A stretch of DNA of 64,000 nt, taken from sequence record PV357171.2; one strand, given 5' to 3'. Shown here piece by piece: positions 10,739-33,479 of the stretch. The position numbers and the translations under genes are program-made. The stretch's first letter is position 1; each line of letters starts with the position of its first letter. The notes beneath the pieces were generated by a model that was not told the origin of the DNA, searched no databases, and worked only from the letters and a program-made list of their open reading frames with translations. Source of the DNA: a phage.

Positions 10739-11296
10739 ATGACTATTGATATTAATAAGCTGAAAGAAGAACTTGGTCTGGGTGATCTGGCTAAATCTCT
10801 GGAAGGTCTGACCGCTGCTCAGAAAGCTCAGGAAGCTGAACGTATGCGTAAAGAGCAGGAAGAAAAAGAACTGGCTCGTATGAATGACTTGGTTTCTAAA
10901 GCAGTTGGCGAAGATCGTCAGAAACTGGAACAAGCTCTGGAACTGGTTAAGTCCCTGGATGAAAAATCTAAGAAGAGCGCAGAACTGTTTGCACAGACTG
11001 TAGAAAAGCAGCAGGAAACTATTGTTGGTCTCCAGGACGAAATCAAATCTCTGCTGGCAGCTCGTGAAGGGCGTTCCTTCGTCGGTGATAGTGTGGCTAA
11101 AGCACTGTACGGTACTCAAGAAAACTTTGAAGACGAAGTGGAGAAACTGGTTCTTCTGTCCTACGTGATGGAAAAAGGTGTATTTGATACCGAACATGGT
11201 CAGAGACACTTGAAAGCTGTAAACCAGTCTTCTTCTGTAGAAGTTTCTAGTGAAAGCTATGAAACTATTTTCTCCCAGCGTATCATCCGTGACTGA
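10739..11296 (+). CDS. major capsid protein, N-terminal scaffolding (delta) domain; frame terminates early
   Basis: Coiled-coil-rich 185 aa; followed in +1 frame by HK97-fold body. Confidence 0.7.
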   Translation: MTIDINKLKEELGLGDLAKSLEGLTAAQKAQEAERMRKEQEEKELARMNDLVSKAVGEDRQKLEQALELVKSLDEKSKKSAELFAQTVEKQQETIVGLQDEIKSLLAAREGRSFVGDSVAKALYGTQENFEDEVEKLVLLSYVMEKGVFDTEHGQRHLKAVNQSSSVEVSSESYETIFSQRIIRD

Positions 11297-11972
11297 GGTT
11301 AAAGGTGCTCTGACTGAAATCCACTTCAGTACTTACAAACTGGCTGCTAAGTCCTTCATTACTGATGAAACTGAAGAAGATGCAATCTTCTCCCTGCTGC
11401 CGCTGCTGCGTAAACGTCTGATTGAAGCACACGCTGTTTCTATCGAAGAAGCGTTTATGACTGGTGATGGTACTGGTAAACCTAAAGGTCTATTGACTCT
11501 TGCTAGCGAAGATGGTGCTAAAGTTACTACTGAAGCTAAAGCTGATGGTTCTGTTCTGGTAACTGCTAAGACTATCTCTAAACTGCGTCGTAAACTGGGC
11601 CGTCATGGTTTGAAACTGTCCAAACTGGTACTGATTGTATCTATGGATGCTTACTACGATCTGCTGGAAGATGAAGAATGGCAGGATGTTGCTCAAGTTG
11701 GTAATGATGCTGTTAAACTGCAGGGTCAGGTTGGTCGTATTTATGGTCTGCCGGTTGTAGTTTCTGAATACTTCCCAGCTAAAGCGGTTGATAAAGAGTT
11801 CGCAGTTATTGTTTATAAAGATAACTTCGTAATGCCACGTCAGCGTGCTGTTACTGTTGAACGTGAGCGTCAAGCTGGTAAACAGCGTGATGCATACTAC
11901 GTTACTCAGCGTGTTAACCTGCAACGTTACTTTAGTAATGGCGTTGTATCTGGTGCTTACGCTGCATCTTAA
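11250..11972 (+). CDS. major capsid protein, HK97-fold body (in +1 frame relative to delta domain)
   Basis: 240 aa; strong terminator downstream; continuation of capsid gene. Confidence 0.7.
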   Translation: MKAMKLFSPSVSSVTEVKGALTEIHFSTYKLAAKSFITDETEEDAIFSLLPLLRKRLIEAHAVSIEEAFMTGDGTGKPKGLLTLASEDGAKVTTEAKADGSVLVTAKTISKLRRKLGRHGLKLSKLVLIVSMDAYYDLLEDEEWQDVAQVGNDAVKLQGQVGRIYGLPVVVSEYFPAKAVDKEFAVIVYKDNFVMPRQRAVTVERERQAGKQRDAYYVTQRVNLQRYFSNGVVSGAYAAS

Positions 11973-20000: not shown

Positions 20001-20702
20001 CAGGTAAGTGCTATTGATGCAGCTATTGCAGCAGAGCAAAAACGTGATGGTAAATCCGAGGAGTCTAAAGCTAAACTCAAGAAACTGGAAGCGGAAAAGG
20101 TTAAGATCCAGCAGGATGCAGCTAAGAAGCAAATCATTATTCAGACGGCAGTAGCAGTAATGCAAGCGGCAACAGCTGTACCATACCCGTTCTCTATTCC
20201 TTTGATGGTGGCGGCAGGTTTGGCAGGTGCGTTGTCTCTTGCTCAAGCATCTTCTGCATCGAGTATGTCAAGTATTGCTGATTCTGGAGCGGATACAACA
20301 AGTTATTTAACCTTAGGAGAGCGTCAAAAGAATATAGATGTGTCCATGTCTGCTAATGCAGGTGAACTATCTTATATCCGAGGCGATAAAGGAATAGGCG
20401 GTGCTAACTCTTTCGTTCCTCGTGCTGAGGGTGGTAATATGTACCCAGGGGTTAGTTACCAAATGGGTGAACATGGTACAGAAGTAGTTACCCCTATGGT
20501 TCCTATGAAAGCTACACCTAATGATGAGCTAAAAACCTCATCTAACTCAACTTCAGGAAGACCTATCATCTTGAATATTAGTGCTATGGATGCTGCAAGT
20601 TTCAGAGAGTTTGCTTCTAGTAATAGTAGTGCTCTAAGAGACGCAGTAGAATTAGCTCTGAATGAGAACGGTGCTAGTCTGAAAACATTAGGAAATTCTT
20701 AA
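17043..20702 (+). CDS. tail tape measure protein (pb2-like)
   Basis: 1219 aa, long coiled-coil/Ala-rich, C-terminal hydrophobic segment and peptidase-like end. Confidence 0.85.
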   Translation: MTDKLIRELLIDVKQKGATRTAKSIENVSDALENAAAASELTNEQLGKMPKTLYSIERAADRAAKSLTKMQASRGMLSITKSINDIGAKLDDLAITMIEVADKLEIGFDGVSRSVKTMGNDVAAATEKVQDRLYDTNRALGGTARGFNDTTGAAGRASRAIGNTSGSARGATRDFAAMAKIGGGLPILYAAIASNIFVLQSAFEGLKVGDQLNRLEHFGTIVGTITGTPVQTLALALQNATNGAVSFEEAMRQASSASAYGFDSKQLEQFGLVARRAAAVLGVDMTDALNRVIKGVSKQEIELLDELGVTIRLNDAYANYVKQLNATSTGIKYTVDSLTTYQRQQAYANEVIAESTRRFGYLDDALKSTSWELFAANANSALRSLQQSAATYLTPVVDTINAFLYQTKSSQMRISAMARSASAKTTPTENVTALIENAVGAQEDLDTYLKESDARVKKAQEIKQQLDDLKAKQAVTAPVANALTAVGIGGDESNKLVVQLTNELARQNQEIAERAKTEKVLKQAVEDTGQALLRNSNLAKQLGANMQYAATAIPGETGVFKIDPNNLKAAAEVQKNYDQLKKSSSDTANNIKMAATNITTAKKASGDLVSIIKAVGDTAKVTGQNTDTLVKNLNLGFENLDQMKAAQKGLSEYVTAMDKNEQNALEVAKRKDEVYNQTKDKAKAEAAAREVLLRQQQEQLTAAKALLAVNPNDPEALKQVAKIETEILNTKAQGFENAKKTKDLTDKILGVDREIALLNDRTMTSTQYRLAQLRLELQLEQEKTELYSKQADGQAKAEQSRRAQAQISRELWEAEKQATASHVSALMDALEVNQTQRNVTGQSQILTERLSILQQQLELSKGNTEEEIKYRNEIYKTSAALEQLKKQRESQMQQQVGSSLGAVYTPTTGLSGADKDFADMQNKMASYDQAISKLSELNSEATAVGQSLGNLTNAMIHFSRGSLDTTSMIAAGMQAVSSVIQYSTSQQVSAIDAAIAAEQKRDGKSEESKAKLKKLEAEKVKIQQDAAKKQIIIQTAVAVMQAATAVPYPFSIPLMVAAGLAGALSLAQASSASSMSSIADSGADTTSYLTLGERQKNIDVSMSANAGELSYIRGDKGIGGANSFVPRAEGGNMYPGVSYQMGEHGTEVVTPMVPMKATPNDELKTSSNSTSGRPIILNISAMDAASFREFASSNSSALRDAVELALNENGASLKTLGNS

Positions 20703-20709
20703 AACTGGA

Positions 20710-20737
20710 GGAGGACTTTGAGTCCTCCTTTTCTTTA
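20710..20737 (+). terminator. rho-independent terminator after tape measure gene
   Basis: GGAGGACT-TTG-AGTCCTCC then T-tract. Confidence 0.75.
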
Positions 20738-20755
20738 TGGAAAAATAAAAATTTC

Positions 20756-20784
20756 TTGATAAAATTTTCTAATACTATTATAAT
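20756..20784 (+). promoter_or_regulatory. sigma70 consensus-like promoter (TTGATA-17-TATAAT) upstream of distal tail protein gene
   Basis: Hexamers and spacing read from sequence; followed by strong RBS AAAGAGGAGAAA. Confidence 0.55.
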
Positions 20785-20811
20785 ATTGTTATTAAAGAGG
20801 AGAAATTAACT

Positions 20812-21426
20812 ATGAGATTACCAGACCCATACACGAATCCAGAACTTTCAGGCTTAGGATTCGAAAGTGTTAACCTGATTGATAATGACCCAGTAATTCG
20901 TGATGAGTTACCAAATGGTAAAGTTAACGAAGTTAAGGTATCTGCTCAATACTGGGGTATAAATATTTCTTATCCAGAATTATTTCCAGATGAATATAGT
21001 GTTCTAGATGCTTTTATTCTAGAATACAAAAGGACTGGTGGTTATATAGATGTTATATTACCCCAATACGAAGCTTTTAGAGTTAGAGGTAATACTAGTC
21101 TAGTAAATATACCTGCTGGACAGAAGGGTTCTAATATAACTATGGATACAAAAGGGCTTCTTACAGGTACTCCAAAACCGGGGGATCTATTTAAGCTGTC
21201 TAGCCACCCAAAAGTATATAAAATAACATCATTTAACAAATCAGGTAATACATGGTCTATAAACTTATACCCTGATTTATTTATAACTACTACTGGAGCG
21301 GAGAAGCCAGTATTCAATGGAATACTATTTAGAACAAAACTCATGAATGGTGATGCTTTTGGATCTACACTAAATAATAACGGAACATACTCCAACATCT
21401 CATTAAATTTACGGGAAAGTCTATGA
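20812..21426 (+). CDS. distal tail protein (pb9-like)
   Basis: 204 aa between tape measure and baseplate hub. Confidence 0.6.
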   Translation: MRLPDPYTNPELSGLGFESVNLIDNDPVIRDELPNGKVNEVKVSAQYWGINISYPELFPDEYSVLDAFILEYKRTGGYIDVILPQYEAFRVRGNTSLVNIPAGQKGSNITMDTKGLLTGTPKPGDLFKLSSHPKVYKITSFNKSGNTWSINLYPDLFITTTGAEKPVFNGILFRTKLMNGDAFGSTLNNNGTYSNISLNLRESL

Positions 21427-24272
21427 AAAAAATATTAGATAGTGCTAGAAACTACTTAAAAAATAATAGCAGAATAAAAACTGCTAGTCTAATTTCTCTA
21501 GAATTACCCGGCTCTACTGGTACTAGTACTGCTTTTATTTACTTAACTGACTATTTTAGAGATGTACTATATAATGGTATTTTGTACCAGGCCGGTAAAG
21601 TTAAGTCTATTAGCACACATAAACAAAATAGAGATTTATCTATTGGCAGCCTATCTTTTACTATTACAGGTACAGCGCAGGATGAAGTACTGAAATTAGT
21701 GCAGAATGGTGTGTCTTTTTTAGATAGATTAGTATCAATTCACCAAGCAATTATTACAGAAGATGGTTCTATTTTACCTGTAGACCCAGACACAAATGGG
21801 CCTTTATTATACTTTAGAGGTAGAATTACTGGTGGAGGTATTAAGGATAATATTAGCACTTCGGGAGTTGGAACCTCCACAATTACTTGGAATTGTTCTA
21901 ACCAATTCTATGATTTTGATAGGGTTAATGGTAGATTTACTGATGATGCTTCTCATAGAGGGCTTGAAGTTGTAGCAGGGCAATTAGTTCCATCTAACGG
22001 GGCTAAAAGACTTGAGTATCAAGAAGATTATGGGTTCTTTCATGCCAATAAAAGTATCTCTATTCTAGCAAAATATCAGGTACAGGAAGAAAGATACAAG
22101 CTAAAGTCTAAGAAAAAGCTATTTGGCCTATCTAGAAGTTATAGTCTTAAAAAGTATTATGAGACTGTTACTAAAGAAGTAGATATAGATTTTAACCTTG
22201 CTGCTAAGTATCTACCAGTAGTTTATGGTGTACAGAAAATACCGGGAATACCTATTTTTGCGGATACGGAATTACACAATCCTAATATAGTTTACGTAGT
22301 ATATGCTTTTGCTGAAGGAGAGATAGACGGTTTTCTTGACTTTTCCTTTGGGGATAACCCTATGATTTGTATGGACTCTAATGATAGCTCTGCTAGAACC
22401 TGTTTCGGTGTTAAAAAAGTAGCCGGAGACACCATGCAAAGAATAGCATCAGGAACACCTTCTAGTAGTCCTTCCGTGCATGGGCAGGAGTATAAGTATA
22501 ATGATGGGAATGGTGACATAAGAATTTGGACGTATCATGGAAAACCTGACCAAACGGCTTCTGAAGTACTAGTAGATATAGCTAAAGAACGTGGGTTCTA
22601 CCTTCAGAATATGAATGGCAATGGACCGGAGTACTGGGATGCTAGGTATAAACTACTAGATACTGCATACGCAGTGGTGCGCTTCACTATTAATGAAAAT
22701 AGGACTGAGATTCCTGAAGTTAGTGCTGAAATTCAAGGTAAAAAAGTAAAAGTCTATCATTCTGATGGTAGAGTAACTGCTAATAGTACTAGTTTAAATG
22801 GTATTTGGCAAACACTTGATTACTTAACCTCTGATAGATATGGCGCTAATATTACCATTGATCAGTTCCCCCTTCAGCAATTAATACAGGAAGCAGATAT
22901 TTTAGATATTATAGATGAATCCTATCAGGTATCTTGGCAGCCATATTGGAGATACGTTGGGTGGACTGATCCACTAGCAGAAAATAGACAAATAGTACAA
23001 ATGAATACTATTCTGGATACATCTGAATCAGTATTTAAAAATGTGCAAGGTTTGTTAGAGTCCTATGGTGGGGCTATTAACAATTTATCTGGCCAGTATA
23101 GGGTTACTGTAGAAAAATACTCTAATACTCCATTAGAGATTAATTTTCTAGACACTTACGGTGATTTGGAGCTATCTGATACTACCGGTAGAAATAAATT
23201 CAACTCAGTTCAAGCATCTATTGTGGATCCCGCCCTTAGCTGGAAAACTAATTCCATTACCTTCTATAATTCCAAGTATAAGGAACAGGACAAAAACCTG
23301 GATAAAAAACTACAATTATCTTTTGCAAATATAACTAACTACTATACTGCTAGAAGTTTTGCAGACAGAGAACTTAAGAAATCTAGGTATTCTAGAACCC
23401 TCTCATTCTCTTTACCATATCAATTCATTGGTATTGAGCCTAACGATGCTATTGCATTTACATACGACCGTTACGGATGGGATAAGAAGTACTTTTTAGT
23501 AGATGAAGTAGAAAACTCTAGAGAAGGAAAGATAAATGTTACTCTACAGGAATATGGTGAAGATGTATTTATCAACTCTGATCAAGTAGATAATAGTGGT
23601 AATGATATACCAGATATTAGTAACAACGTTCTTCCTCCTAGGGATTTTAAATATACTCCTACACCCGGTGGTTTAGTTGGTTCTATAGGAAAAAATGGTG
23701 AGTTATCTTGGCTTCCAAGCTTAACTAATAACGTAGTTTATTATTCTATCGTACATTCCGGTCATGCTGAGCCTTATACTGTGCAGCAACTAGAAACAAA
23801 TCCCAATGAACGCATGATCCAAGAGATAATTGGAGAGCCTGCAGGCTTAGCGATATTTGAAATAAGAGCTGTGGATATAAACGGTAGAAGAAGTTCTCCA
23901 GTAACATTATCTATAGAACTTAACTCTGCTAAAAACCTAAGTGTAGTATCTAATTTTAGGGTAACTAATACGGCTTCCGGGGATGTAACTGAATTTGTAG
24001 GCCCAGATGTAAAACTAGCTTGGGATAGGATACCGGAAGAAGATATAATAGAAAGTATATTCTATACTCTGGAAATCTATGATTCCCAGAATAGAATGCT
24101 AAGAAGTGTACGTATTGAAAATCAGTATACTTATGACTATTTATTAATGTATAATAAGGCAGATTTTGCTCTTCATAACAGTGATGCTCTAGGAATCAAT
24201 AGAAAACTATATTTTCGTATTAGAGCAGAAGGAGATGATGGGGAACAGTCTGTGGAGTGGGCATCCATTTAA
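21423..24272 (+). CDS. baseplate hub protein (pb3-like)
   Basis: 949 aa; synteny. Confidence 0.7.
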   Translation: MKKILDSARNYLKNNSRIKTASLISLELPGSTGTSTAFIYLTDYFRDVLYNGILYQAGKVKSISTHKQNRDLSIGSLSFTITGTAQDEVLKLVQNGVSFLDRLVSIHQAIITEDGSILPVDPDTNGPLLYFRGRITGGGIKDNISTSGVGTSTITWNCSNQFYDFDRVNGRFTDDASHRGLEVVAGQLVPSNGAKRLEYQEDYGFFHANKSISILAKYQVQEERYKLKSKKKLFGLSRSYSLKKYYETVTKEVDIDFNLAAKYLPVVYGVQKIPGIPIFADTELHNPNIVYVVYAFAEGEIDGFLDFSFGDNPMICMDSNDSSARTCFGVKKVAGDTMQRIASGTPSSSPSVHGQEYKYNDGNGDIRIWTYHGKPDQTASEVLVDIAKERGFYLQNMNGNGPEYWDARYKLLDTAYAVVRFTINENRTEIPEVSAEIQGKKVKVYHSDGRVTANSTSLNGIWQTLDYLTSDRYGANITIDQFPLQQLIQEADILDIIDESYQVSWQPYWRYVGWTDPLAENRQIVQMNTILDTSESVFKNVQGLLESYGGAINNLSGQYRVTVEKYSNTPLEINFLDTYGDLELSDTTGRNKFNSVQASIVDPALSWKTNSITFYNSKYKEQDKNLDKKLQLSFANITNYYTARSFADRELKKSRYSRTLSFSLPYQFIGIEPNDAIAFTYDRYGWDKKYFLVDEVENSREGKINVTLQEYGEDVFINSDQVDNSGNDIPDISNNVLPPRDFKYTPTPGGLVGSIGKNGELSWLPSLTNNVVYYSIVHSGHAEPYTVQQLETNPNERMIQEIIGEPAGLAIFEIRAVDINGRRSSPVTLSIELNSAKNLSVVSNFRVTNTASGDVTEFVGPDVKLAWDRIPEEDIIESIFYTLEIYDSQNRMLRSVRIENQYTYDYLLMYNKADFALHNSDALGINRKLYFRIRAEGDDGEQSVEWASI

Positions 24273-26329
24273 TGATTTCGAATAATGCACCAGCCAAAAT
24301 GGTCTTAAATAGTATAATGACTGGATATACAATGGCATATGTCCAGCACTCTATATATACTGACTATGACGTTATTGGTAGATCTTTTTGGTTAAAAACA
24401 GGGGAAAGTATAGATAGACGTGATTATACTGGTATAGATACTTTCTTCGTAATGATTAATAACCTGACCCCTTCAACCTCTTACGAGATTCAAGGGGCTT
24501 TTTATGATTCTATTATAGACTCTGAGCTATTAGAGGCTAAGATCGGTATAAATTTATCTAATAAAACTACCTTTAGTACTAAGAGAAAACCTACTATTAC
24601 TGCTGCTCGATCAGAAGCAGATCCAGTAGATGTGGGTGTTGGTGCTCCAATAGTAGTTATAGAAACTACGGGAGAAGCTAGTTATTGTACTATTGAGCTA
24701 AAGAGTACTCAACCTTCAAATAGCCCGTGGGTAAAGCATTATATAGGTCCACTATCCCCCACTATTAGATTTGGTGGTGTTCCTGTTGGGGATTACAAAG
24801 TACGCATATCAGGGCAAGTTACTATGCCTGATGGTGTAACGGTAGACTCCTCTGGGTACTTTGAATTTTCCAAAGTTCTTACTGTAGAATATAACTTTGT
24901 ACCTCCTACTGCTCCTAATAACATTACCTTCAAAGCTGCAAGAATAGCGGATGGTAAAGAGAGATATGACCTTCGTGTACAGTGGGAGTGGAATAGGGGA
25001 TCTGGAGCCAATGTTCGAGAATTTGTCGTTTCTTATATAGATTCCACAGAATTTGCAAGAACTGGATGGACTAAAGCTCAAAAAATTAACGTAGGTGCTG
25101 CACAAGCGGCAACTATTATATCGTTCCCGTGGAAAATTGAGCATAAATTTAAAGTCTCCTCTATAGCGTGGGGGCCAGATGCTCAAGATGTAACAGATTC
25201 TGTAGTACAGACTTTTATACTAAATGAGGATACCCCTCTTGATAATAGTTTTGTTAATGAAACTGGTATAGAAGTAAACTATGCGTATATTAAAGGTAAG
25301 ATTAAAGATGGCTCCACGTGGAAGCAAACATTTTTAATCGATGCTACTACTGGTGCTATTAATATAGGTCTTCTAGATGCTGAAGGAAAAGCACCAATAT
25401 CTTTTGATCCGATTAAAAAGATAGTTAACGTTGATGGTAGTGTTATAACTAAAACTATCAATGCTGCTAACTTTGTAATGACCAATCTAACTGGCCAAGA
25501 TAACCCTGCAATCTATACTCAAGGTAAAACTTGGGGGGATACAAAATCTGGTATCTGGATGGGAATGGATAACACTTCTGCTAAGCCAAAGCTAGATATA
25601 GGTAATGCTACTCAGTGGATACGCTATGATGGCGATGTGCTACGTATTTCTAGTGGAGTTGTTATTGGAACTCCTAATGGTGATGTAGATATTGGTACTG
25701 GGATGCAGGGTAAGCAAACAGTATTTGTTTATAAGTTAGCAACATCTCTACCCGCTAAACCACTAGAACAAGATTATCCGCCTCCTGGTTGGTCAAAAAC
25801 TCCACCTAATCGTACAGATATGACACAAAATATCTATGCGACTACTGGTACACTTGATCCAGTTACTAACAAACTTCTTGAAGGTACTAGCTGGTCTGAT
25901 GTAGTTCAATGGAGCGGTACTGAAGGTACTATTGGTGCAGATGGTCAAAGGGGTCCTGGCATGTATTCCTTAGGTATTCCAGGTCTTGGTGGTTGGGATG
26001 ATGGGCAAGCTAATACCTTCTTCCAGAATAACTTTGGTAGTCCACCCGTTAGATATGATGTATTGACTGAGTTTAATAGTAATGCTCCGCAATCTGCATT
26101 TACTCGTCAATGGAATGGTTCCGGTTGGGTTAATCCAGCAATGGTACTGCATGGCGATATGATAGTTAACGGTACGGTAACCGCCAGTAAGATTGTAGCA
26201 AATAATGCCTTCTTATCTCAGATCGGTGTTAACGTTATTTATGATAGAAACGCTGCATTATCTGATAATCCGGAAGCCTATTACAGAATGAAGATAGACC
26301 TGCAAAACGGGTACATCCATATAAGGTAA
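24257..26329 (+). CDS. central straight fibre / tail tip protein (pb4-like)
   Basis: 690 aa; synteny. Confidence 0.6.
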   Translation: MGIHLMISNNAPAKMVLNSIMTGYTMAYVQHSIYTDYDVIGRSFWLKTGESIDRRDYTGIDTFFVMINNLTPSTSYEIQGAFYDSIIDSELLEAKIGINLSNKTTFSTKRKPTITAARSEADPVDVGVGAPIVVIETTGEASYCTIELKSTQPSNSPWVKHYIGPLSPTIRFGGVPVGDYKVRISGQVTMPDGVTVDSSGYFEFSKVLTVEYNFVPPTAPNNITFKAARIADGKERYDLRVQWEWNRGSGANVREFVVSYIDSTEFARTGWTKAQKINVGAAQAATIISFPWKIEHKFKVSSIAWGPDAQDVTDSVVQTFILNEDTPLDNSFVNETGIEVNYAYIKGKIKDGSTWKQTFLIDATTGAINIGLLDAEGKAPISFDPIKKIVNVDGSVITKTINAANFVMTNLTGQDNPAIYTQGKTWGDTKSGIWMGMDNTSAKPKLDIGNATQWIRYDGDVLRISSGVVIGTPNGDVDIGTGMQGKQTVFVYKLATSLPAKPLEQDYPPPGWSKTPPNRTDMTQNIYATTGTLDPVTNKLLEGTSWSDVVQWSGTEGTIGADGQRGPGMYSLGIPGLGGWDDGQANTFFQNNFGSPPVRYDVLTEFNSNAPQSAFTRQWNGSGWVNPAMVLHGDMIVNGTVTASKIVANNAFLSQIGVNVIYDRNAALSDNPEAYYRMKIDLQNGYIHIR

Positions 26330-26332
26330 ATA

Positions 26333-26755
26333 ATGAGTACTGAAAATAGAGTTATAGACTTAGTAATAGATGAGAAAGTACCATATGGTTTAATGATGCA
26401 GTTCTTAGATGTTGATGATAGTACTTATCCACCTACAAGTACCCCTGTTAACTTAACTGGGTATTCTCTAAGGGGTACTATAAAAAATAGCCTAGATGAG
26501 AATGCGGAGATATTGGCATCCTTTACTACTAATATTATTGATGCTGCTCAAGGGGCTGTAGCTATAAGTTTACCAGTAGAATCTGTGGAGAATATAGGAG
26601 CTAAAGCATCTAAAGATAGAGATAAATATAATCCTCGTCAGCGATTCGCAGGATACTATGATATAATTATGACTAGAGATGTTATAGGATCTGCAATTAG
26701 CTCCTTTCGTATAATGGAGGGTAAAGTATTTATCAGTGATGGGGTAACTAAATAA
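26333..26755 (+). CDS. collar protein (p132-like)
   Basis: 140 aa; synteny before L-shaped fibre gene. Confidence 0.5.
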
Positions 26756-29103
26756 TGGCAGTAACTACTAAGATTATTGTACAACAGATACTAAATATTG
26801 ATGATACTAAAGCTACTGCTAGTAAATTTCCTAGATATACAGTAACTCTTGGTAACTCTATTAGCTCTATTACTGCAAGTGAGTTAGTATCATCTATTGA
26901 GGCCGCAGCTAAGTCTGCTGCAGCTGCAAAAGACTCTGAAATAGCTGCTAAGACTTCAGAGCTTAATGCTAAGAACTCTGAACAGGAAGCTGCTATTTCT
27001 GCTGGAGCTTCTGAAGCCTCTGCCACTCAGTCCGCTACATCTGCTACTCAATCTGCAGAATCAGCGGATAGATCTGCAGAATCAGCCGCAGCAGCTAAAG
27101 TATCAGAGACTAATGCGAAAGCTAGTGAAACTAAAGCTAAAACATCCGAGACTAATGCAAAAGCCTCAGAAACTAATGCAAAGTCTAGTGAAACCAAAGC
27201 TAAAACCTCGGAAACTAATGCTAAAACTAGTGAAACCAACGCTGCTGCTTCCGCTGCTGCTGCAAAAATTAGTGAGACTAATGCTAAGACTAGTGAGACT
27301 AATGCTGCTGAGTCTGCTGCGTCTGCTGCCGATTCTAAAGGTTTTAGGGATGAAGCAGAAACATTTGCTGCACAAGCGGCTGCCTCTGCTGCGGCTGCTA
27401 AAGTATCCGAGACTAAGGCAAAAACATCAGAAACTAATGCAAAGTCTAGCGAAACTAAAGCTAAGGCTAGTGAAACAAATGCTGCTAGTTCTGCAACTTC
27501 AGCTAGTCAATCAGTAACCACTATTCAAGGTCTAAAATCTGACGTTGAGGAATTAAAATCTGATACTCAAACCATAAAGAATAGTGCTGTAACTGAGACA
27601 ACAGCTTTAAAAAATCAAGCGGCTACTTCTGCAACTAATGCTGCTGCATCTGCTACTGAAGCGGGAAAACAAGCTACTAATGCTGCTAATAGTGCTAATA
27701 GTGCTAAAACTGAGGCTGACCGTTCAAAAACTGAAGCTGATCGTGCTAAAGCTGAGGCAGATAGATCTGAAGCCGCTATTAATGATACTCCTGAGCTGCA
27801 GCCGTTACCTGATGTATGGATACCTTTTAATGACTCCTTAGATATGATTACCGGCTTCTCACCTAGCTATAAAAAGATTATAATTGGTGACGATGAAATT
27901 ACAATGCCTGGTGACAAGATTGTTAAGTTTAAACGTGCATCAACTGCGACATATATTAATAAATCCGGCGTTTTCACTGTTGCGGGAATTGATGAACCAC
28001 GTTTTGAACGTGATGGTCTGCTTATTGAGGGGCAAAGAACAAACTATATTCTTAACTCCCTTACTGTTTCTAAATGGGGTGCATCTTCGTGGTTGACAAT
28101 CTCATCAAGCGGAGTTGATAGCTTTGGTTTTACATATGGCCGATTTGATGTTCAGTCTAGTAATGTTGGAAGCACAACATCCGGTAATATTGCTGTGGCT
28201 CCTTCACCAAGAGCTTTTGACGTTACTGGTGATGAGAAGTATTGCACTATATCTTGCCGATGCAAATGTGAATCAGACATAGATATTCGATGCAGACTCC
28301 GATTTGAGAACTACGACGGGACTGCCACATCCTTCATTGGCGATGCGTACATGAATATGCAGACTTTAGATATAACAACTACAGGTGGAGCAGCAGGTAG
28401 AATTACAGCTAAAGCGGTCAAGGATAATGCTACAGGATGGATATTTTTTGAAGCGACAATAAAAGCACTAGATACCGAAAATATGATTGGTGGCCAAGTT
28501 CAGATAGCACCATCTCAAAGAGTTGGATCTTTTGCAGATGGCGATCATATTATTGTTGCAACGCCGCAATTTGAAGGTGGGGCGACTGCATCGTCATTCA
28601 TCATATCTGATACAGTTGCAGCGACAAGGGCTAGCGATATGGTGACAGTGCCAATTAAAAACAATCTTTATAGCTTACCTTTTACGGTTCTTTGTGAGGT
28701 ACATAAGAATTGGTACAAAACACCGAATGCAGCACCGCGAGTTTTTGATACTGCAGGTCATCAAACTGGAGCAGCAATCATTCTTGGATTTGGTTCTTCA
28801 ACAAATTACGATGGGTTTCCATATTGCGATATTGGTGGGTCTAACCGACGTGTTAACGAAAACGCATCGCTTGAAAAAATGGTTATGGGGATGCGTGTGA
28901 AAGAAGATCAGATGACATGTGCGATAAGTAATGGGCGTATATCTAGTGAGACAAAGACAACTTGGACTTATATTCAAAGCTCTGCAACCATTCGTATAGG
29001 TGGTCAGACAACAACAGGGCAGCGTCATTTATTCGGGCATGTCAGAAATTTTCGAGTATGGCATAAAGCATTGACTGACCGTGAATTGAAGGAGTCGGTA
29101 TGA
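26755..29103 (+). CDS. L-shaped tail fibre protein A (LtfA-like), heptad-repeat shaft and C-terminal ConA/LamG-like lectin domain
   Basis: N-terminus resembles T5 pb1; SETNAK-type repeats; C-terminal motif FGHVRNFRVWHKALTDRELKE. Confidence 0.65.
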   Translation: MAVTTKIIVQQILNIDDTKATASKFPRYTVTLGNSISSITASELVSSIEAAAKSAAAAKDSEIAAKTSELNAKNSEQEAAISAGASEASATQSATSATQSAESADRSAESAAAAKVSETNAKASETKAKTSETNAKASETNAKSSETKAKTSETNAKTSETNAAASAAAAKISETNAKTSETNAAESAASAADSKGFRDEAETFAAQAAASAAAAKVSETKAKTSETNAKSSETKAKASETNAASSATSASQSVTTIQGLKSDVEELKSDTQTIKNSAVTETTALKNQAATSATNAAASATEAGKQATNAANSANSAKTEADRSKTEADRAKAEADRSEAAINDTPELQPLPDVWIPFNDSLDMITGFSPSYKKIIIGDDEITMPGDKIVKFKRASTATYINKSGVFTVAGIDEPRFERDGLLIEGQRTNYILNSLTVSKWGASSWLTISSSGVDSFGFTYGRFDVQSSNVGSTTSGNIAVAPSPRAFDVTGDEKYCTISCRCKCESDIDIRCRLRFENYDGTATSFIGDAYMNMQTLDITTTGGAAGRITAKAVKDNATGWIFFEATIKALDTENMIGGQVQIAPSQRVGSFADGDHIIVATPQFEGGATASSFIISDTVAATRASDMVTVPIKNNLYSLPFTVLCEVHKNWYKTPNAAPRVFDTAGHQTGAAIILGFGSSTNYDGFPYCDIGGSNRRVNENASLEKMVMGMRVKEDQMTCAISNGRISSETKTTWTYIQSSATIRIGGQTTTGQRHLFGHVRNFRVWHKALTDRELKESV
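27040..27490 (+). repeat. in-frame tandem repeats (about 21 bp units, SETNAK/SETKAK) inside LtfA gene
   Basis: Visible periodicity in protein and DNA. Confidence 0.7.
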
Positions 29104-29375
29104 AAGACTTAACTATGAAATTTAAGGACAAGAAAGCATTTGAGGATTTTCTTGTGGTTATTGATTGGGAAGGTAATGAAACTTTGCAAAATCAAATAAT
29201 ACTTGATGTTATCGGATATACTTATACACAAACTGGTGGCTCAGAGGAAGAGCCCATATATACCCAGAATGGGGGATATTATGTGAACGTAAGGGTTATT
29301 GATGATTCAATTGACTTCACTCAATACAGTGATCATAGTGTTATTCTTGAACAGTCTCTTAGAGAGTGGGCATAA
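29100..29375 (+). CDS. hypothetical protein (91 aa) between the two fibre genes
   Basis: ATGA overlap with LtfA stop. Confidence 0.4.
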   Translation: MKDLTMKFKDKKAFEDFLVVIDWEGNETLQNQIILDVIGYTYTQTGGSEEEPIYTQNGGYYVNVRVIDDSIDFTQYSDHSVILEQSLREWA

Positions 29376-29493
29376 GGTTTTATAATGGTAACTAAAACAG
29401 TAATTCCTACGGATATTACAAAACTTAAAAATGAGTCACTTAATAAAAATAATAACCTGAGTGACTTAGCAGACCGTGCAGCAGCCTGGCTAA

Positions 29494-31128
29494 ATGTGCG
29501 TCCTATTGGGTCCACCCCTCTTGCGGGGGATCCTGTTGGGGGACTATGATGCCGCAACTAAACGTTGGGTAGAGAATAAGATTAACACTGGTACAGTTGG
29601 ACCCACTATGAATGGTGTTATGAACTACGGTGTTGGTGATTTCCACCTTCGAGATAGCCGTGCATACATTCAACCATACGAGGTGGTTTCTGATGGGCAG
29701 CTCCTTAATAGGGCTGACTGGCCGGAGCTTTGGTCTTACGCTCAAATGGTGGGGGCAATTAGTGATGCAAAATGGTTAGCAGATCCACATGAGAGAGGCA
29801 AATACTCAGTTGGTGATGGTCGAACAACCTTCCGTGTTCCTGATCGAAATGGTGTTCAATCTGGCTCCTTTAAAGGTCTTTTTGGACGTGGTGATAGTGG
29901 GGTAACTTCTAACCTCGGTAGAACGAATGAGTCTTCTGCTCCTAACTTAACTGCCTACTTCAGAACCGTAACTGATACGTCAATTATTGAAAATGATGCT
30001 GCAAGTGGTGCTGGATACCCATCCGAGGCATACCAAAAATATGCTCGGCTAAGCGCTATTAAAGAAGAGGCTGCACTAGAAATATACCCACGTAGATGGA
30101 ACTTTGATGCTTCTCGCCAATCTAGTGTATATGGGCGTTATGGTAATACAGATGAGATTACACCTAATAACTTCACCGGTGTATGGGTAATCCGGGCGTC
30201 TGGTGGTTTCGTTGCAGCAAATACATCTTGGAGTGTTATTAACGGCGATGCGACCAGACCAACAGACAGCACAAGAGTTGAATCAGGGAAAGTAAGCGTA
30301 GAATATAAGATTGGAACGGCTATTGAGGCGCAGGGTAAAGTCTATACTGCTGCAACAATGGGCGGGACATATTCTACCCAGCTCTCTGTTAAAAATGCCA
30401 CTACGGGTAAAGAGAAAGATATCAGCGTCACAGAAGATGGTGATCTGTGGTCTGACCGCTTTAAGGGTAGATTTGGCACCCGTATGGCTTGGAGTCAGAC
30501 CGGCTGGGTCTATGGCACATTTTCCCAAGCCAACCAAGCCATCGGTAACGACTACAGTTTCTACAGTATTCTTAGCGGCTCCCAAAGTTCAAGCTCGGGC
30601 TATAAAACTCATACCCATATTGGTCAAATCCATAATGACAATGGTTCATTTGCTGATAGCTGCTGGCATGTTGCAGGTGATGATGATAATAAATATGGTG
30701 TACGTTTAAAAATTCAGCCTAATAATAATAGTATTTATTTCTATTCTTGGTGGCCTAATGGTGCAGCAACCTATACTTTGCAATTAAATGCTATATCTGA
30801 TTCTCGCTTAAAGCATGATATTAAGGCTATAGATGCAACTAAATCCATCGAAATATTAAAAGGATTGGAATTCCAATCCTTTGTATATAATAACGATGAA
30901 AAATCTCGTATCCGACGTGGGGTTATTGCTCAGCAAGTAGAGACTATAGAACCACTTTATGTAAAAACTAGAAGATTTTATAATAATGATGGGGTAGAGC
31001 AAGAACAGAAGGAATTAGATACGACTCCAATGCTTCTTGACACTATGCATGTCGTGCAAGAACTTATAAAACGGATTGAATCTTTGGAAGAAGAACTCAA
31101 GCAATTAAGAGCAAACCTAGTGCAATAA
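29494..31128 (+). CDS. L-shaped tail fibre protein B (LtfB-like) with C-terminal intramolecular chaperone (peptidase S74-type) domain
   Basis: C-terminal SDSRLKHDIK...coiled-coil chaperone signature; start codon assignment uncertain. Confidence 0.6.
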   Translation: MCVLLGPPLLRGILLGDYDAATKRWVENKINTGTVGPTMNGVMNYGVGDFHLRDSRAYIQPYEVVSDGQLLNRADWPELWSYAQMVGAISDAKWLADPHERGKYSVGDGRTTFRVPDRNGVQSGSFKGLFGRGDSGVTSNLGRTNESSAPNLTAYFRTVTDTSIIENDAASGAGYPSEAYQKYARLSAIKEEAALEIYPRRWNFDASRQSSVYGRYGNTDEITPNNFTGVWVIRASGGFVAANTSWSVINGDATRPTDSTRVESGKVSVEYKIGTAIEAQGKVYTAATMGGTYSTQLSVKNATTGKEKDISVTEDGDLWSDRFKGRFGTRMAWSQTGWVYGTFSQANQAIGNDYSFYSILSGSQSSSSGYKTHTHIGQIHNDNGSFADSCWHVAGDDDNKYGVRLKIQPNNNSIYFYSWWPNGAATYTLQLNAISDSRLKHDIKAIDATKSIEILKGLEFQSFVYNNDEKSRIRRGVIAQQVETIEPLYVKTRRFYNNDGVEQEQKELDTTPMLLDTMHVVQELIKRIESLEEELKQLRANLVQ

Positions 31129-31136
31129 TGTAAGAA

Positions 31137-31165
31137 AACCCCAGTGGATTTTGTCCACTGGGGTT
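31137..31165. terminator. bidirectional terminator between convergent late and early modules
   Basis: AACCCCAGTGGA-TTTT-GTCCACTGGGGTT with T/A tracts on both sides. Confidence 0.75.
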
Positions 31166-31187
31166 TATTATTTATTTGATATGTAGA

Positions 31188-31634
31188 TTATTTATTTCCC
31201 GAACTTCCAAACCCGCCTTCACCACGATCAGTTTCCCCTAGTTCATCAACAATTTCAAAATTATGTGTTGAGTAGTGTGGTACTACTACCAACTGACAAA
31301 GTCTTTCAAAATTCTCCAGAGTTTGCATTTCAGAACCGTAATTATAGAGGTTCATCTTAATAGTACCACGATAGTCTGAGTCGATCACCCCTGCGGTGTT
31401 TGCGATCATCAGATGACGCTTACCTAAAGAGCTGCGAGGAACTACCAAACCGAACCAACCTCGCGGAATTTCTACCGCGACACCGGTGTCAATCATTAAG
31501 GATTTGCCTGGTGCAATAGCACGTAAATCTGCAGCAGGGTTAGTACCAAAGAATGCTCGCAGATCCATACCTGCGGCATCTTCGGAACCAATCTTAGGCA
31601 TACAATCTGGATGAGTTAATTTAATTTTAATCAT
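31188..31634 (-). CDS. dut: dUTPase
   Basis: 148 aa; motifs RSSLG and GVIDSDYRG. Confidence 0.85.
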   Translation of the reverse strand: MIKIKLTHPDCMPKIGSEDAAGMDLRAFFGTNPAADLRAIAPGKSLMIDTGVAVEIPRGWFGLVVPRSSLGKRHLMIANTAGVIDSDYRGTIKMNLYNYGSEMQTLENFERLCQLVVVPHYSTHNFEIVDELGETDRGEGGFGSSGNK

Positions 31635-32506
31635 TGTTCTGCAATCTCCAAAATATCTTTTGTAAACTTATCTAATACATCTTGACCTACAGCAGCAATA
31701 GCGTCCACACAGTAGGTAGGTAAATCAACTAAAATTAGGTTTCGATAAAGCAATTCTTCCGAAGCATTTAAATTCTGTATATATTTCTGTTTTCCAGGTA
31801 GTGGAAGCTGATCAATAATATCCAGAACGTTACCAAATTCACGAATAATATTATATCCGCGTTTTGCCCCAATACCTTCAACACCTCGGATATTATCCCC
31901 TAAATCACCCATAATTGCTTTCAGAGAGATAAACTGCTCTACATCGTCAACATTATGATGCTCGTACATATCACGAAGATGATATTCACGATGTGTTGTG
32001 AAAGAGAAGCGAGAAACTTTATCAGTTAATAAAGTATCCCAGTCACCATCGGTAGAAATTAGCCAAACATGATCATATAGATGCCCAATCAACTTAACAA
32101 TATAAGCTGCCATATCATCTGCTTCTACGCCACGAATAGTGAAGGTTGGGAATGTAGTTTCACATAGTTCGAAAGCATCTTTCAAATACTCGAAGAACTG
32201 CTCATCTAACGCTTTCTCCTCTTCCGTACGCTGAGAGTATTTCTCATCTCGATTCCCTTTATACTCAGGGAGATGCTCTAAGCGGAATGCAGACTTCCCT
32301 TTATCTCCTAAAACTATTGTAGTTCTAGCGGAATAAGATTTTGCTAGAGACTGAATAGTGGAAACATAACTTGAGGCAAATGGTTTTTTACTATTGTTAT
32401 GTTTGAAGCGAAAGCCTAAGTTAGTTCCATCGACAATCATTAGGTTACGACGGGAAGCCATTTCAGCTTCCTCTTCTTCAATAAATTTTCCCCAGGATTT
32501 ACTCAT
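31631..32506 (-). CDS. flap endonuclease / 5'-3' exonuclease (D15-like)
   Basis: 291 aa; FEN-type acidic clusters; length as for T5 D15. Confidence 0.8.
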   Translation of the reverse strand: MSKSWGKFIEEEEAEMASRRNLMIVDGTNLGFRFKHNNSKKPFASSYVSTIQSLAKSYSARTTIVLGDKGKSAFRLEHLPEYKGNRDEKYSQRTEEEKALDEQFFEYLKDAFELCETTFPTFTIRGVEADDMAAYIVKLIGHLYDHVWLISTDGDWDTLLTDKVSRFSFTTHREYHLRDMYEHHNVDDVEQFISLKAIMGDLGDNIRGVEGIGAKRGYNIIREFGNVLDIIDQLPLPGKQKYIQNLNASEELLYRNLILVDLPTYCVDAIAAVGQDVLDKFTKDILEIAEQ

Positions 32507-32988
32507 TATTTAATTAAGTCCTCAACAGATGCATGATGTAGCCACGGCTCAAATAAACCAATTACGATTTCCATGTCTTTCTTATTTAACACCATATGGG
32601 TACGACTCATTAAGTTGTCAACCATCGGGTCTGAGCTATCCAAAGCTATTAACCACTGTCCTCTGTCTTTTTTGAATATTAATGCAGGTTTGGAGTTCAT
32701 CTGCTCACCTTCACGTGAGCACTGCTGCCACCACTTCTCTAGGGTGGATTCACCAACATTAAATAAATTACTTGATAATGCGTCGTCTTTATAATGTTTT
32801 ACTTCAAAACAGTACTTACTGATTTTGCCTGTTTGTGGTGGAAGGTAGATGTCACCTTTCAGTCCGTGGCTCTGGCCAAAAGCACCAGAGCCAGGCACTC
32901 TCTCCCACTCTAGCTTTGTTCGCTCTCTAAGAATATCTCTTACTTGATACTCAGCTCTTTTTCCTTTTTCTCTACTATCTACAGCCAT
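32506..32988 (-). CDS. hypothetical protein, possible PD-(D/E)xK nuclease (D14-like)
   Basis: 160 aa; D...EVK pattern (GDIYL...FEVKH). Confidence 0.35.
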   Translation of the reverse strand: MAVDSREKGKRAEYQVRDILRERTKLEWERVPGSGAFGQSHGLKGDIYLPPQTGKISKYCFEVKHYKDDALSSNLFNVGESTLEKWWQQCSREGEQMNSKPALIFKKDRGQWLIALDSSDPMVDNLMSRTHMVLNKKDMEIVIGLFEPWLHHASVEDLIK

Positions 32989-33479
32989 TATTCCTCTGGG
33001 AAATTTAATACTGCGAAATCTCCGAAGTATTCTTTTGCTTTAATATCATAGGCTTTTGCCGCAATTTCTTCAGTTGGGTAGCTACCAATATACTCAGTTT
33101 TTCTGCTGAAAGGATTGCCAATTCTAGCGATATAGCTCCTACCATTAAAATGGACTCCTCTAACTGTATTTGGGCTAGACCTATTAGCCATATTCTGGGA
33201 TCTAGAACAGTCTCTCAGATTTTCTATTCTATTATTACTAACATCTCTATCTATATGGTCTATTTCCTTTGGCCAATAATTATTGAACATAAAAAATATC
33301 AGTCTATGAACATACTCTTGCCTCTGGAACAAAGTAACCCTTAGATACCCGGCCTTATTAGGAGTACCTGCAGGTACTCCTGCCTTCATCCTACCCCTAG
33401 TCTGCTTATTTATTAGCAGTCCATCCCTATAATTATATCTATTCCAAAGGTATTCTACAGTAACTCTTGGATCAGCCAT
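32988..33479 (-). CDS. HNH homing endonuclease with C-terminal AP2-like DNA-binding domain
   Basis: HIDRDVSNNRIENL HNH core; C-terminal ...EEIAAKAYD... AP2-like. Confidence 0.7.
   Translation of the reverse strand: MADPRVTVEYLWNRYNYRDGLLINKQTRGRMKAGVPAGTPNKAGYLRVTLFQRQEYVHRLIFFMFNNYWPKEIDHIDRDVSNNRIENLRDCSRSQNMANRSSPNTVRGVHFNGRSYIARIGNPFSRKTEYIGSYPTEEIAAKAYDIKAKEYFGDFAVLNFPEE

Follow-up and report, generated by a model that had tools for sequence, protein, structure and literature searches.

A probable Tequintavirus lateral tail-fibre operon of the IrisVonRoten/AKFV33 type, with a frameshifted distal gene, in phage sequence PV357171.2

The L-shaped lateral tail fibre of phage T5 is a single polypeptide, pb1, of 1396 aa. 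In a 64,000-nt stretch of phage DNA (sequence record PV357171.2, hereafter the window), three consecutive open reading frames (ORFs) occupy the fibre locus instead, at 26755-29103 (782 aa), 29100-29375 (91 aa) and 29494-31128 (544 aa), which raises the question of how many proteins make up this fibre and how they are joined. A preliminary description made from the sequence alone placed the three ORFs correctly, and was right that the lateral fibre comprises more than one polypeptide rather than a single ~1400-aa pb1. It further likened the locus to the branched LtfA/LtfB fibre of phage DT57C. We conclude with high confidence that the locus encodes the L-shaped lateral tail fibre of a Tequintavirus, as an operon of the allele type found in IrisVonRoten (Bas32), AKFV33, phiR2-01 and SIA3lw, for which a plug-and-socket mechanism is proposed. 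The feature is real but already known, being near-identical to a published locus. Its main unusual trait is a frameshift in the distal gene, which is most likely an error.

Gene layout and closest relatives

ORF41-44 of Salmonella phage vB_SalS-SIA3lw (PP094244; PMC12752171) are 99.9% identical to the locus at the DNA level over 4374 nt, with five single-nucleotide polymorphisms and one indel, and the 782-aa protein is 99.9% identical to SIA3lw ORF42. The differences are that SIA3lw has a run of four G residues (G4) and an intact 580-aa ORF44, and that the rest of the window is 90-97% identical. Both ORF42 and ORF44 were detected in SIA3lw virions by mass spectrometry (PMC12752171). The authors of that study recognized a single lateral tail fibre protein (ORF42) and no LtfA/LtfB, ORF44 being in their view an unrelated S74 protein of its own, which BF23 lacks (PMC12752171). 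Contrary to their reading, our comparison shows ORF44 (L001, 5631-7373) as the probable distal lateral-fibre subunit. SIA3lw-type phages would then have a two-subunit lateral fibre, and work on their host range toward S. Infantis should therefore examine the distal protein as well as the lectin-like module described below.

IrisVonRoten has the same gene order and spacing 3' of ltfC, with gp21 (LtfC), gp22 (796 aa), gp23 (92 aa) and gp24 (574 aa). The full-length identities of gp22, gp23 and gp24 to the window proteins are 74%, 55% and 72%, respectively; the distal fibres agree at each of their first 60 residues, and the module-bearing proximal protein is 67-74% identical to gp22. In this phage, gp24 was described as a 'T-shaped' fibre with a Gp12-like receptor-binding domain (RBD1), a T5-like RBD2 and an intramolecular chaperone, attached to gp22 (Humolli et al. 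2025, BASEL-II, PMC11990801), and an AlphaFold-Multimer model of how the two fibres join in Bas32 has been published (PMC11990801). AKFV33 (2012) and phiR2-01 (2021) have the equivalent three-gene layout, and AKFV33 ORF137 was detected in virions. The window shares the hallmarks of this group: an ATGA overlap at 29100 with 9 nt between the small ORF and the start at 29385 (likewise in L011 and L012), an NF048003/LamG-like module at the end of the proximal protein, and the motif M-x-T-x-T-x-I-P-x-D-I-x-x-L-K at 29385-29432. It differs from IrisVonRoten in the frameshift of the distal gene and in divergent receptor-binding stretches (distal residues ~181-240 and ~290-420; module residues ~455-600), so that the glycan target should differ from that of Bas32. 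Bas32 recognizes E. coli O16, whereas the SIA3lw relative infects S. Infantis.

The features of the proximal part of the operon are as follows.

26333-26755, plus strand: LtfC collar protein, 140 aa (Pfam PF23926 LtfC, E = 1.7e-14; 100% amino acid identity to SIA3lw ORF41)
26755-29103, plus strand: proximal lateral tail fibre protein, 782 aa, with a pb1/LtfA-type anchor, a heptad shaft rich in Ala, Ser, Glu, Thr and Lys, and a C-terminal module of ~440 aa resembling lectins and carbohydrate-binding modules (CBMs) (PHROG 1419, E = 2e-284)
26755-27312, plus strand: anchor with the first part of the coiled coil (residues 1-186), homologous to the N-termini of T5 pb1 and DT57C LtfA
27093-27758, plus strand: heptad tracts of the SETNAK/TSETKAK type in the shaft (Tandem Repeats Finder arrays of period 21, 42 and 63)
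28045-28590, plus strand: predicted beta-jelly-roll, CBM-like domain, residues ~431-612, overlapping the NCBIfam 'GTA_spike_fiber' match
28936-29088, plus strand: extreme C-terminal segment, residues 728-778, with a sub-threshold Laminin_G_3 (PF13385)/ConA-like match
29100-29375, plus strand: small conserved protein, 91 aa, with tight linkage to the module and a start codon that overlaps the proximal stop (ATGA)

The pb1-like N-terminus ascribed to the 782-aa protein was confirmed, residues 1-186 being 54% identical to T5 pb1 1-206 (E = 3e-32). They are also 54% identical to DT57C LtfA 1-207 and gave a phmmer match to PDB 8hqz_d (E = 1e-35). The context is that of a T5-type anchor as well: ltfC lies directly 5' of the fibre gene, with homologues of T5 pb3 and pb4 upstream, and in the cryo-EM structure of DT57C, LtfC forms the ring that takes the lateral fibre N-termini (PMC10713586). 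N-terminal homology and the position of ltfC together support the claim that this protein anchors like pb1 and LtfA. The SETNAK-type heptads were likewise recovered, as tandem repeats with a 21-nt period at 27093-27243, 27430-27482 and 27701-27758.

The ConA/LamG-like lectin motif proposed for the C-terminus stood only in part. In its favour, residues 728-778 match Laminin_G_3 (profile positions 100-150 of 151), and the same match was found in 13 of 25 family members, with a best E value of 8e-5. In the window protein, however, the match (E = 0.0047, 17.5 bits) stays below the Pfam gathering score of 27.6, and the last 170 residues have no confident structural model. Upstream of this segment, NCBIfam NF048003 'GTA_spike_fiber' scores above its cut-off at residues 423-626 (E = 7.7e-13), and the AlphaFold2 (AF2) model of the C-terminal module is confident for residues ~431-612 only, with a CBM-like fold. 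The proximal module thus appears lectin-like without being a curated member of Laminin_G_3, the fold-class resemblance being supported for the neighbouring domain. A C-terminal galectin-like domain was predicted for its homologue, IrisVonRoten gp22 (PMC11990801). The Pfam search of the 782-aa protein gave no match to Peptidase_S74 at E ≤ 0.1, and hence no intramolecular chaperone domain. A sequence search of the PDB with the module and the small ORF returned no homologue, the LtfA N-terminus being the sole PDB match of this side of the locus.

The extra G in the distal fibre gene

Distal to the small ORF, the following features can be assigned.

29385-29540, plus strand: codons 1-52 of the distal fibre gene, its true 5' end, counted from the start annotated in SIA3lw, FGS017, IrisVonRoten and AKFV33
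29538-29542, plus strand: run of five G residues (G5), by alignment a +1 insertion relative to the G4 of relatives, breaking the distal fibre frame
29542-31128, plus strand: rest of the distal fibre gene, codons 53-580 and stop, in the frame of the 544-aa ORF, with a collar/Gp12-like region, a second receptor-binding region and a C-terminal chaperone
30796-31125, plus strand: intramolecular chaperone (Peptidase_S74) domain (Pfam PF13884), with the predicted autocleavage motif SDSRLK from residue 471 of the repaired protein

The 544-aa ORF had been taken for a gene in its own right. The distal genes of SIA3lw, FGS017, IrisVonRoten and AKFV33, however, all begin at the equivalent of 29385 and continue in frame through G4 or GAGG, and the '544-aa protein' is therefore an artefact of the reading-frame break. 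In the window, the start at 29385 is read as a 54-aa ORF ending at 29549, in a frame differing from that of the 544-aa ORF. A purine-rich ribosome-binding site precedes the ATGs at 29100 and 29385, the latter having AAGG 8 nt upstream, and none precedes the ATG at 29494. The first 16 residues of the 544-aa ORF are out-of-frame sequence, and the true first 52 residues of the protein are cut off. The intact protein has 580 aa, and the genes of the four relatives encode 557-581 aa.

The conserved N-terminus thereby lost consists of residues 1-16 of the distal protein, MVTKTVIPTDITKLKN (nt 29385-29432), hereafter the plug peptide, which in the window lies in a different frame from the body of the gene. 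As written, the distal gene is predicted to be inactive, as the extra G separates this docking peptide from the fibre body and leaves the latter without attachment. It had also been considered that the two large ORFs could be a single gene broken by a sequencing error. This was rejected, as the two are separate genes in all four relatives; the broken gene is the distal one itself.

The S74-type chaperone attributed to the last protein was found in the window's own ORF (PF13884, residues 435-487, nt 30796-30954; E = 1.1e-12, 48.5 bits against a cut-off of 22). The predicted cleavage motif SDSRLK, of the Ser-Asp-x-Arg-x-Lys type, aligns with S1264-DARLK of T5 pb1, and the chaperone region also matches PDB 6f45, a long tail fiber distal subunit (E = 7e-6).

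We consider the extra G probably a sequencing or assembly error. The window reads GGGGG where all relatives checked have GGGG or GAGG, and this insertion is the only indel in the locus against SIA3lw. As a 25-mer, the G4 version was found in seven loci and four IMG/VR viral contigs, whereas the G5 version has no match in 16 loci or in the viral contig collection. No independent assembly is on record with the exact 782-aa or 544-aa product. A second lesion lies in the major capsid gene (the pb8 homologue, 10739-11972), where a 143-bp gap relative to SIA3lw at ~11293/11294, not a multiple of three, splits the gene into ORFs of 185 and 240 aa. In the best 12 of 449 related records, the capsid span is 1307-1377 nt (the full 1377 nt in 11), against 1234 nt in the window, and none of these 12 shares the gap, which represents either an assembly defect or a defective genome. 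Since a phage with this capsid defect would not be viable, the sequence as given contains at least one defect, which makes an error the likeliest explanation for the G run too.

An error at this very locus would have a precedent. In the T5 reference NC_005859, the annotation divides ltfC into two short ORFs, T5.135 and T5.136 (L025, 10056-10480), where relatives have one gene of 140 aa, and the split has been attributed to a frameshift error in the T5 reference genome (PMC10713586, Table 1 footnote).

Several observations nevertheless count against an error. The sequence is not riddled with homopolymer mistakes: among ~50 SIA3lw genes compared with the window, the distal fibre and major capsid genes are broken, one further gene diverges at its N-terminus, some are missing at the ends of the window, and the ~40 others are intact. 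A genuine mutation is conceivable, too, and would make the window a distal-fibre null in which only the proximal fibre with its lectin-like module is made, as a host-range variant or through loss on laboratory passage. A proximal fibre might plausibly work alone, since prophages often carry the module and its small ORF with no distal fibre behind them (46 of the 77 viral loci surveyed below; also the lambda-like 1H12). Lateral-fibre genes decay on rough laboratory hosts, where the fibres are dispensable and ltf mutations arise on passage (PMC4728585, section 3.8), and the side fibres of Ur-lambda are missing from lambda PaPa (PMC11990801). We regard a genuine null as the less probable of these two readings, given the uniqueness of G5 (no match, against 11 for G4), its location in a homopolymer, a classic site of sequencing errors, the lethal-looking out-of-frame capsid gap in the same window and the known frameshift error in the neighbouring ltfC of T5.

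Programmed +1 frameshifting or slippage at the G run, restoring the full-length distal fibre at some frequency in a regulated or phase-variable manner, was rejected as extremely improbable. In its favour, a short homopolymer coincides with the break, and 56 nt are shared by the two frames. However, the relatives checked are all in frame with G4 or GAGG, which speaks against a conserved frameshift signal, and no stable RNA structure was found downstream of the run (z = -0.56). A run of five G residues is also too short for efficient slippage. With an error as the preferred explanation, we advise that the distal fibre be annotated from 29385 with a probable frameshift error flagged at 29538-29542, and that the capsid defect be flagged likewise.

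Comparison with DT57C and T5

The last protein is related to fibres, and the possibility that it is not, raised in the preliminary description, is contradicted by its homology to the distal parts of both DT57C fibre proteins. The repaired distal protein is 47% identical end to end to LtfA 511-1076, its first ~250 residues being nearly identical, and 44% identical to LtfB 206-788. Together with the LtfC collar and the pb1-type N-terminal anchor, the distal body (collar-like region, tip and S74 chaperone), homologous to the distal halves of LtfA and LtfB, is what the window has in common with DT57C/DT571-2 (Golomidova et al. 2016; Ayala et al. 2023).

A branched fibre of the DT57C type, in which the 782-aa protein would be LtfA with a tip of its own and the last protein an LtfB branching off through a phiEco32 gp14/gp15-type interface, is nonetheless highly unlikely. 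It can draw on the homologies just given and on the membership of the last protein in PHROG 6921; for the FGS017 orthologue, the annotated top match is a DT571/2 gene. Against it, both docking elements of DT57C are missing. The proposed LtfB dock is the phiEco32-gp14-like segment LtfA 223-471, and the N-terminal ~45 residues of LtfB are phiEco32-gp15-like (PMC4728585). In BLASTP, the 782-aa protein gave no alignment to LtfA past residues ~207-226 of the latter, hence none to the dock, and differs from LtfA throughout this part. The alignment of the last protein to LtfB starts only at residue 206, so that the N-terminal ~205 residues of LtfB, including the 45-aa docking segment, are not part of the window's protein; the LtfB N-terminus, MSRPLMPKSGAM..., is unrelated to MVTKTVIPTDITKLK of the window's distal protein.

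The DT57C design also implies two proteins that each carry a tip and an S74 domain. In the window, Peptidase_S74 is confined to the distal protein, and the proximal protein has neither a tip nor a chaperone of its own. DT57C, in turn, has no small ORF between ltfA and ltfB. On these sequence comparisons, the missing docking elements would leave the branched reading largely refuted, and the resemblance to DT57C suggested at the outset does not extend to its arrangement, for lack of both docks and of a second tip and chaperone. In effect, the window's distal protein would correspond to LtfA ~511-1076 made as a separate polypeptide with another docking peptide. The more fitting comparator is the IrisVonRoten/AKFV33/phiR2-01 type, in which a proximal fibre and a small ORF are followed by a distal fibre with a different conserved N-terminal peptide.

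The comparison with T5 pb1 gave a similar picture at the two ends. The N-terminal ~200 residues, including KTSETNA heptads, are 54% identical, and both fibres have a C-terminal S74 chaperone with an equivalent cleavage motif. Unlike the single pb1 polypeptide, the window encodes two or three, and the middle and receptor-binding parts are unrelated to those of pb1, in agreement with the earlier claim that these determinants are distinct from T5.

The module cassette, its small protein and the flanking sequence

The proximal module has more than 2500 homologous proteins and is found fused to anchors of lambda-Stf, P2-gpH, T1-like, 9g-like and T5 type. The full cassette of module, small ORF and plug-bearing distal fibre also occurs in P2-like and lambdoid prophages and in T1-like, 9g-like and Dhillonvirus phages. 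In these cassettes, as in the window, a ~440-aa module (mostly 62-94% identical; ~50% in JenP2 and 1H12) is directly followed by an ORF of ~92 aa, and any distal fibre that comes next bears the plug at its N-terminus. They differ in their anchors, which are of the PF08400 lambda Stf type or the PF12571/PF03406 P2 gpH type, and in their distal fibres, which range from 64 to 586 aa or are lacking. The motif M-x-T-x-T-x-I-P-x-D-I-x-x-L-K is kept in eight of nine cassettes from six phage groups. Among the distal proteins, the first 16 residues are 56-100% identical, while the remainder is 24-54% identical or unrelated, a signature that would be expected of a docking peptide.

Linkage was surveyed in 80 IMG/VR loci carrying the small ORF, with counts based on 77. 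The end of the module lies at most 12 nt from the start of the small ORF in 76 of the 77 loci. In 31 of them the next ORF, of 64-586 aa, bears the plug, with a gap of 10 nt in 27 of 29 loci; a distal fibre is absent from the other 46, mostly related lambdoid prophages. The small ORF therefore belongs with the module, whereas the distal fibre is optional.

Three side observations were made on these loci. Many lambdoid prophages (L021, and others among the 46 loci without a distal fibre, L026-L105) have a 97-aa hydrophobic ORF, MDISPLLHALCAVAAQ..., after the module and the small ORF; the same ORF follows the distal fibre in L009 and L010, and sitABCD manganese transporter genes lie just beyond in two inspected loci, L021 and L010. 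In an E. coli lambdoid prophage (GCA_002087735.1; L008, 7187-9859), genes for 93 and 263 aa are followed in tandem by genes for an identical 93-aa protein and a 345-aa S74 distal fibre, a duplication which suggests recombination inside the small ORF as the route by which distal fibres are gained or swapped. Lastly, OR848352 and OR847733 (both 'Listeria phage') and MG065652 ('Campylobacter phage C11') contain enterobacterial T5-like or 9g-like fibre cassettes with up to 99.7% identity, and are probably mislabelled or contaminant contigs.

How the parts may work together can be sketched as follows. By homology with the DT57C LtfA structure, three trimers of the 782-aa protein would thread their N-termini into the LtfC ring and extend as an alpha-helical shaft of heptad repeats. 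Each shaft would end in the ~440-aa lectin/CBM-like module, which probably binds sugar itself and could also serve as the socket for a separate distal fibre. The latter (580 aa when intact) would dock through its conserved 16-residue N-terminal peptide, carry two variable receptor-binding regions, and be folded and trimmed by its S74 chaperone, with cleavage predicted at SDSRLK. The 91-aa protein, whose synthesis is likely coupled translationally to that of the proximal protein, most likely serves the chaperone-less module, either as a dedicated assembly factor or as a small structural partner.

Some observations sit uneasily with this scheme. AF2 confidence is lacking for the last 170 residues and for the first 90 residues of the module, and the structure predictions made here covered single chains. 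The small protein is predicted to adopt a compact alpha/beta fold, with uninformative structural neighbours and no clue to function. When covariation of the small ORF with the module was set against that with the plug or distal fibre, the signal for the module was weak (rho = 0.39), with pairs that are not independent and a single divergent cassette driving it, and in one pair of cassettes the modules are 94% identical and the small ORFs only 50%.

The role of the small protein is not addressed in the literature examined. Rather than a chaperone, it might be a structural hinge or adaptor kept in the virion, joining plug to socket in the manner of T4 gp35/gp36, an alternative that we hold to be rather unlikely. 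The overlap of its start with the stop of the proximal gene suggests equimolar synthesis, the unit of small ORF and distal fibre is the one duplicated in the lambdoid prophage mentioned above, and IrisVonRoten gp23 is annotated as 'tail fiber protein'. An adaptor of this kind is harder to reconcile with the retention of the small ORF in the 46 loci that have no distal fibre. Other annotators, moreover, label the protein a chaperone (HMD-P4; phiR2-01 g124), though by annotation alone, and the bands analysed from SIA3lw and AKFV33 did not include it.

An assembly factor or small structural partner of the module thus remains our preferred reading of the 91-aa protein. Only tentatively, and with somewhat less than even confidence, do we generalize it to a universal three-part coupling, in which the module, its obligate ~91-aa companion, acting as a clamp or folding factor, and the 16-residue plug would allow unrelated receptor-binding fibres of 64-586 aa to be swapped among T5-, T1-, 9g-, Dhillonvirus-, lambda- and P2-like phages. 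With its occurrence in six phage groups, the cassette has the look of a natural plug-and-socket interface and could be of use in host-range engineering if docking is verified. What novelty the locus has lies in this apparently universal interface and in the uncharacterised small protein.

The window as a whole represents the tail-tip to replication region of a Tequintavirus. Downstream of the fibre ORFs lies a convergent block of dUTPase, flap endonuclease and D14 genes, separated from them by one further feature.

31136-31166, no strand assigned: terminator-like GC-rich hairpin (consensus scan), its 14-bp stem leading into a T-rich tail, between the fibre operon and the dUTPase gene that converges on it

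A bidirectional terminator is annotated at the equivalent place in T5 and AKFV33. Between D14 and D13 (SbcC-like), the minus strand carries an HNH_3 homing-endonuclease ORF of 163 aa (32988-33479; Pfam, E = 2e-14), whereas D14 and D13 adjoin in SIA3lw and T5. The tail-tip/fibre block as a whole (~20700-33000) is near-identical to that of SIA3lw, with 100% identity of the pb4, LtfC and dUTPase proteins, whereas the tape measure protein is only 74% identical and other regions fall within the 90-97% given above. This mosaicism points to a recent exchange of the adsorption module.

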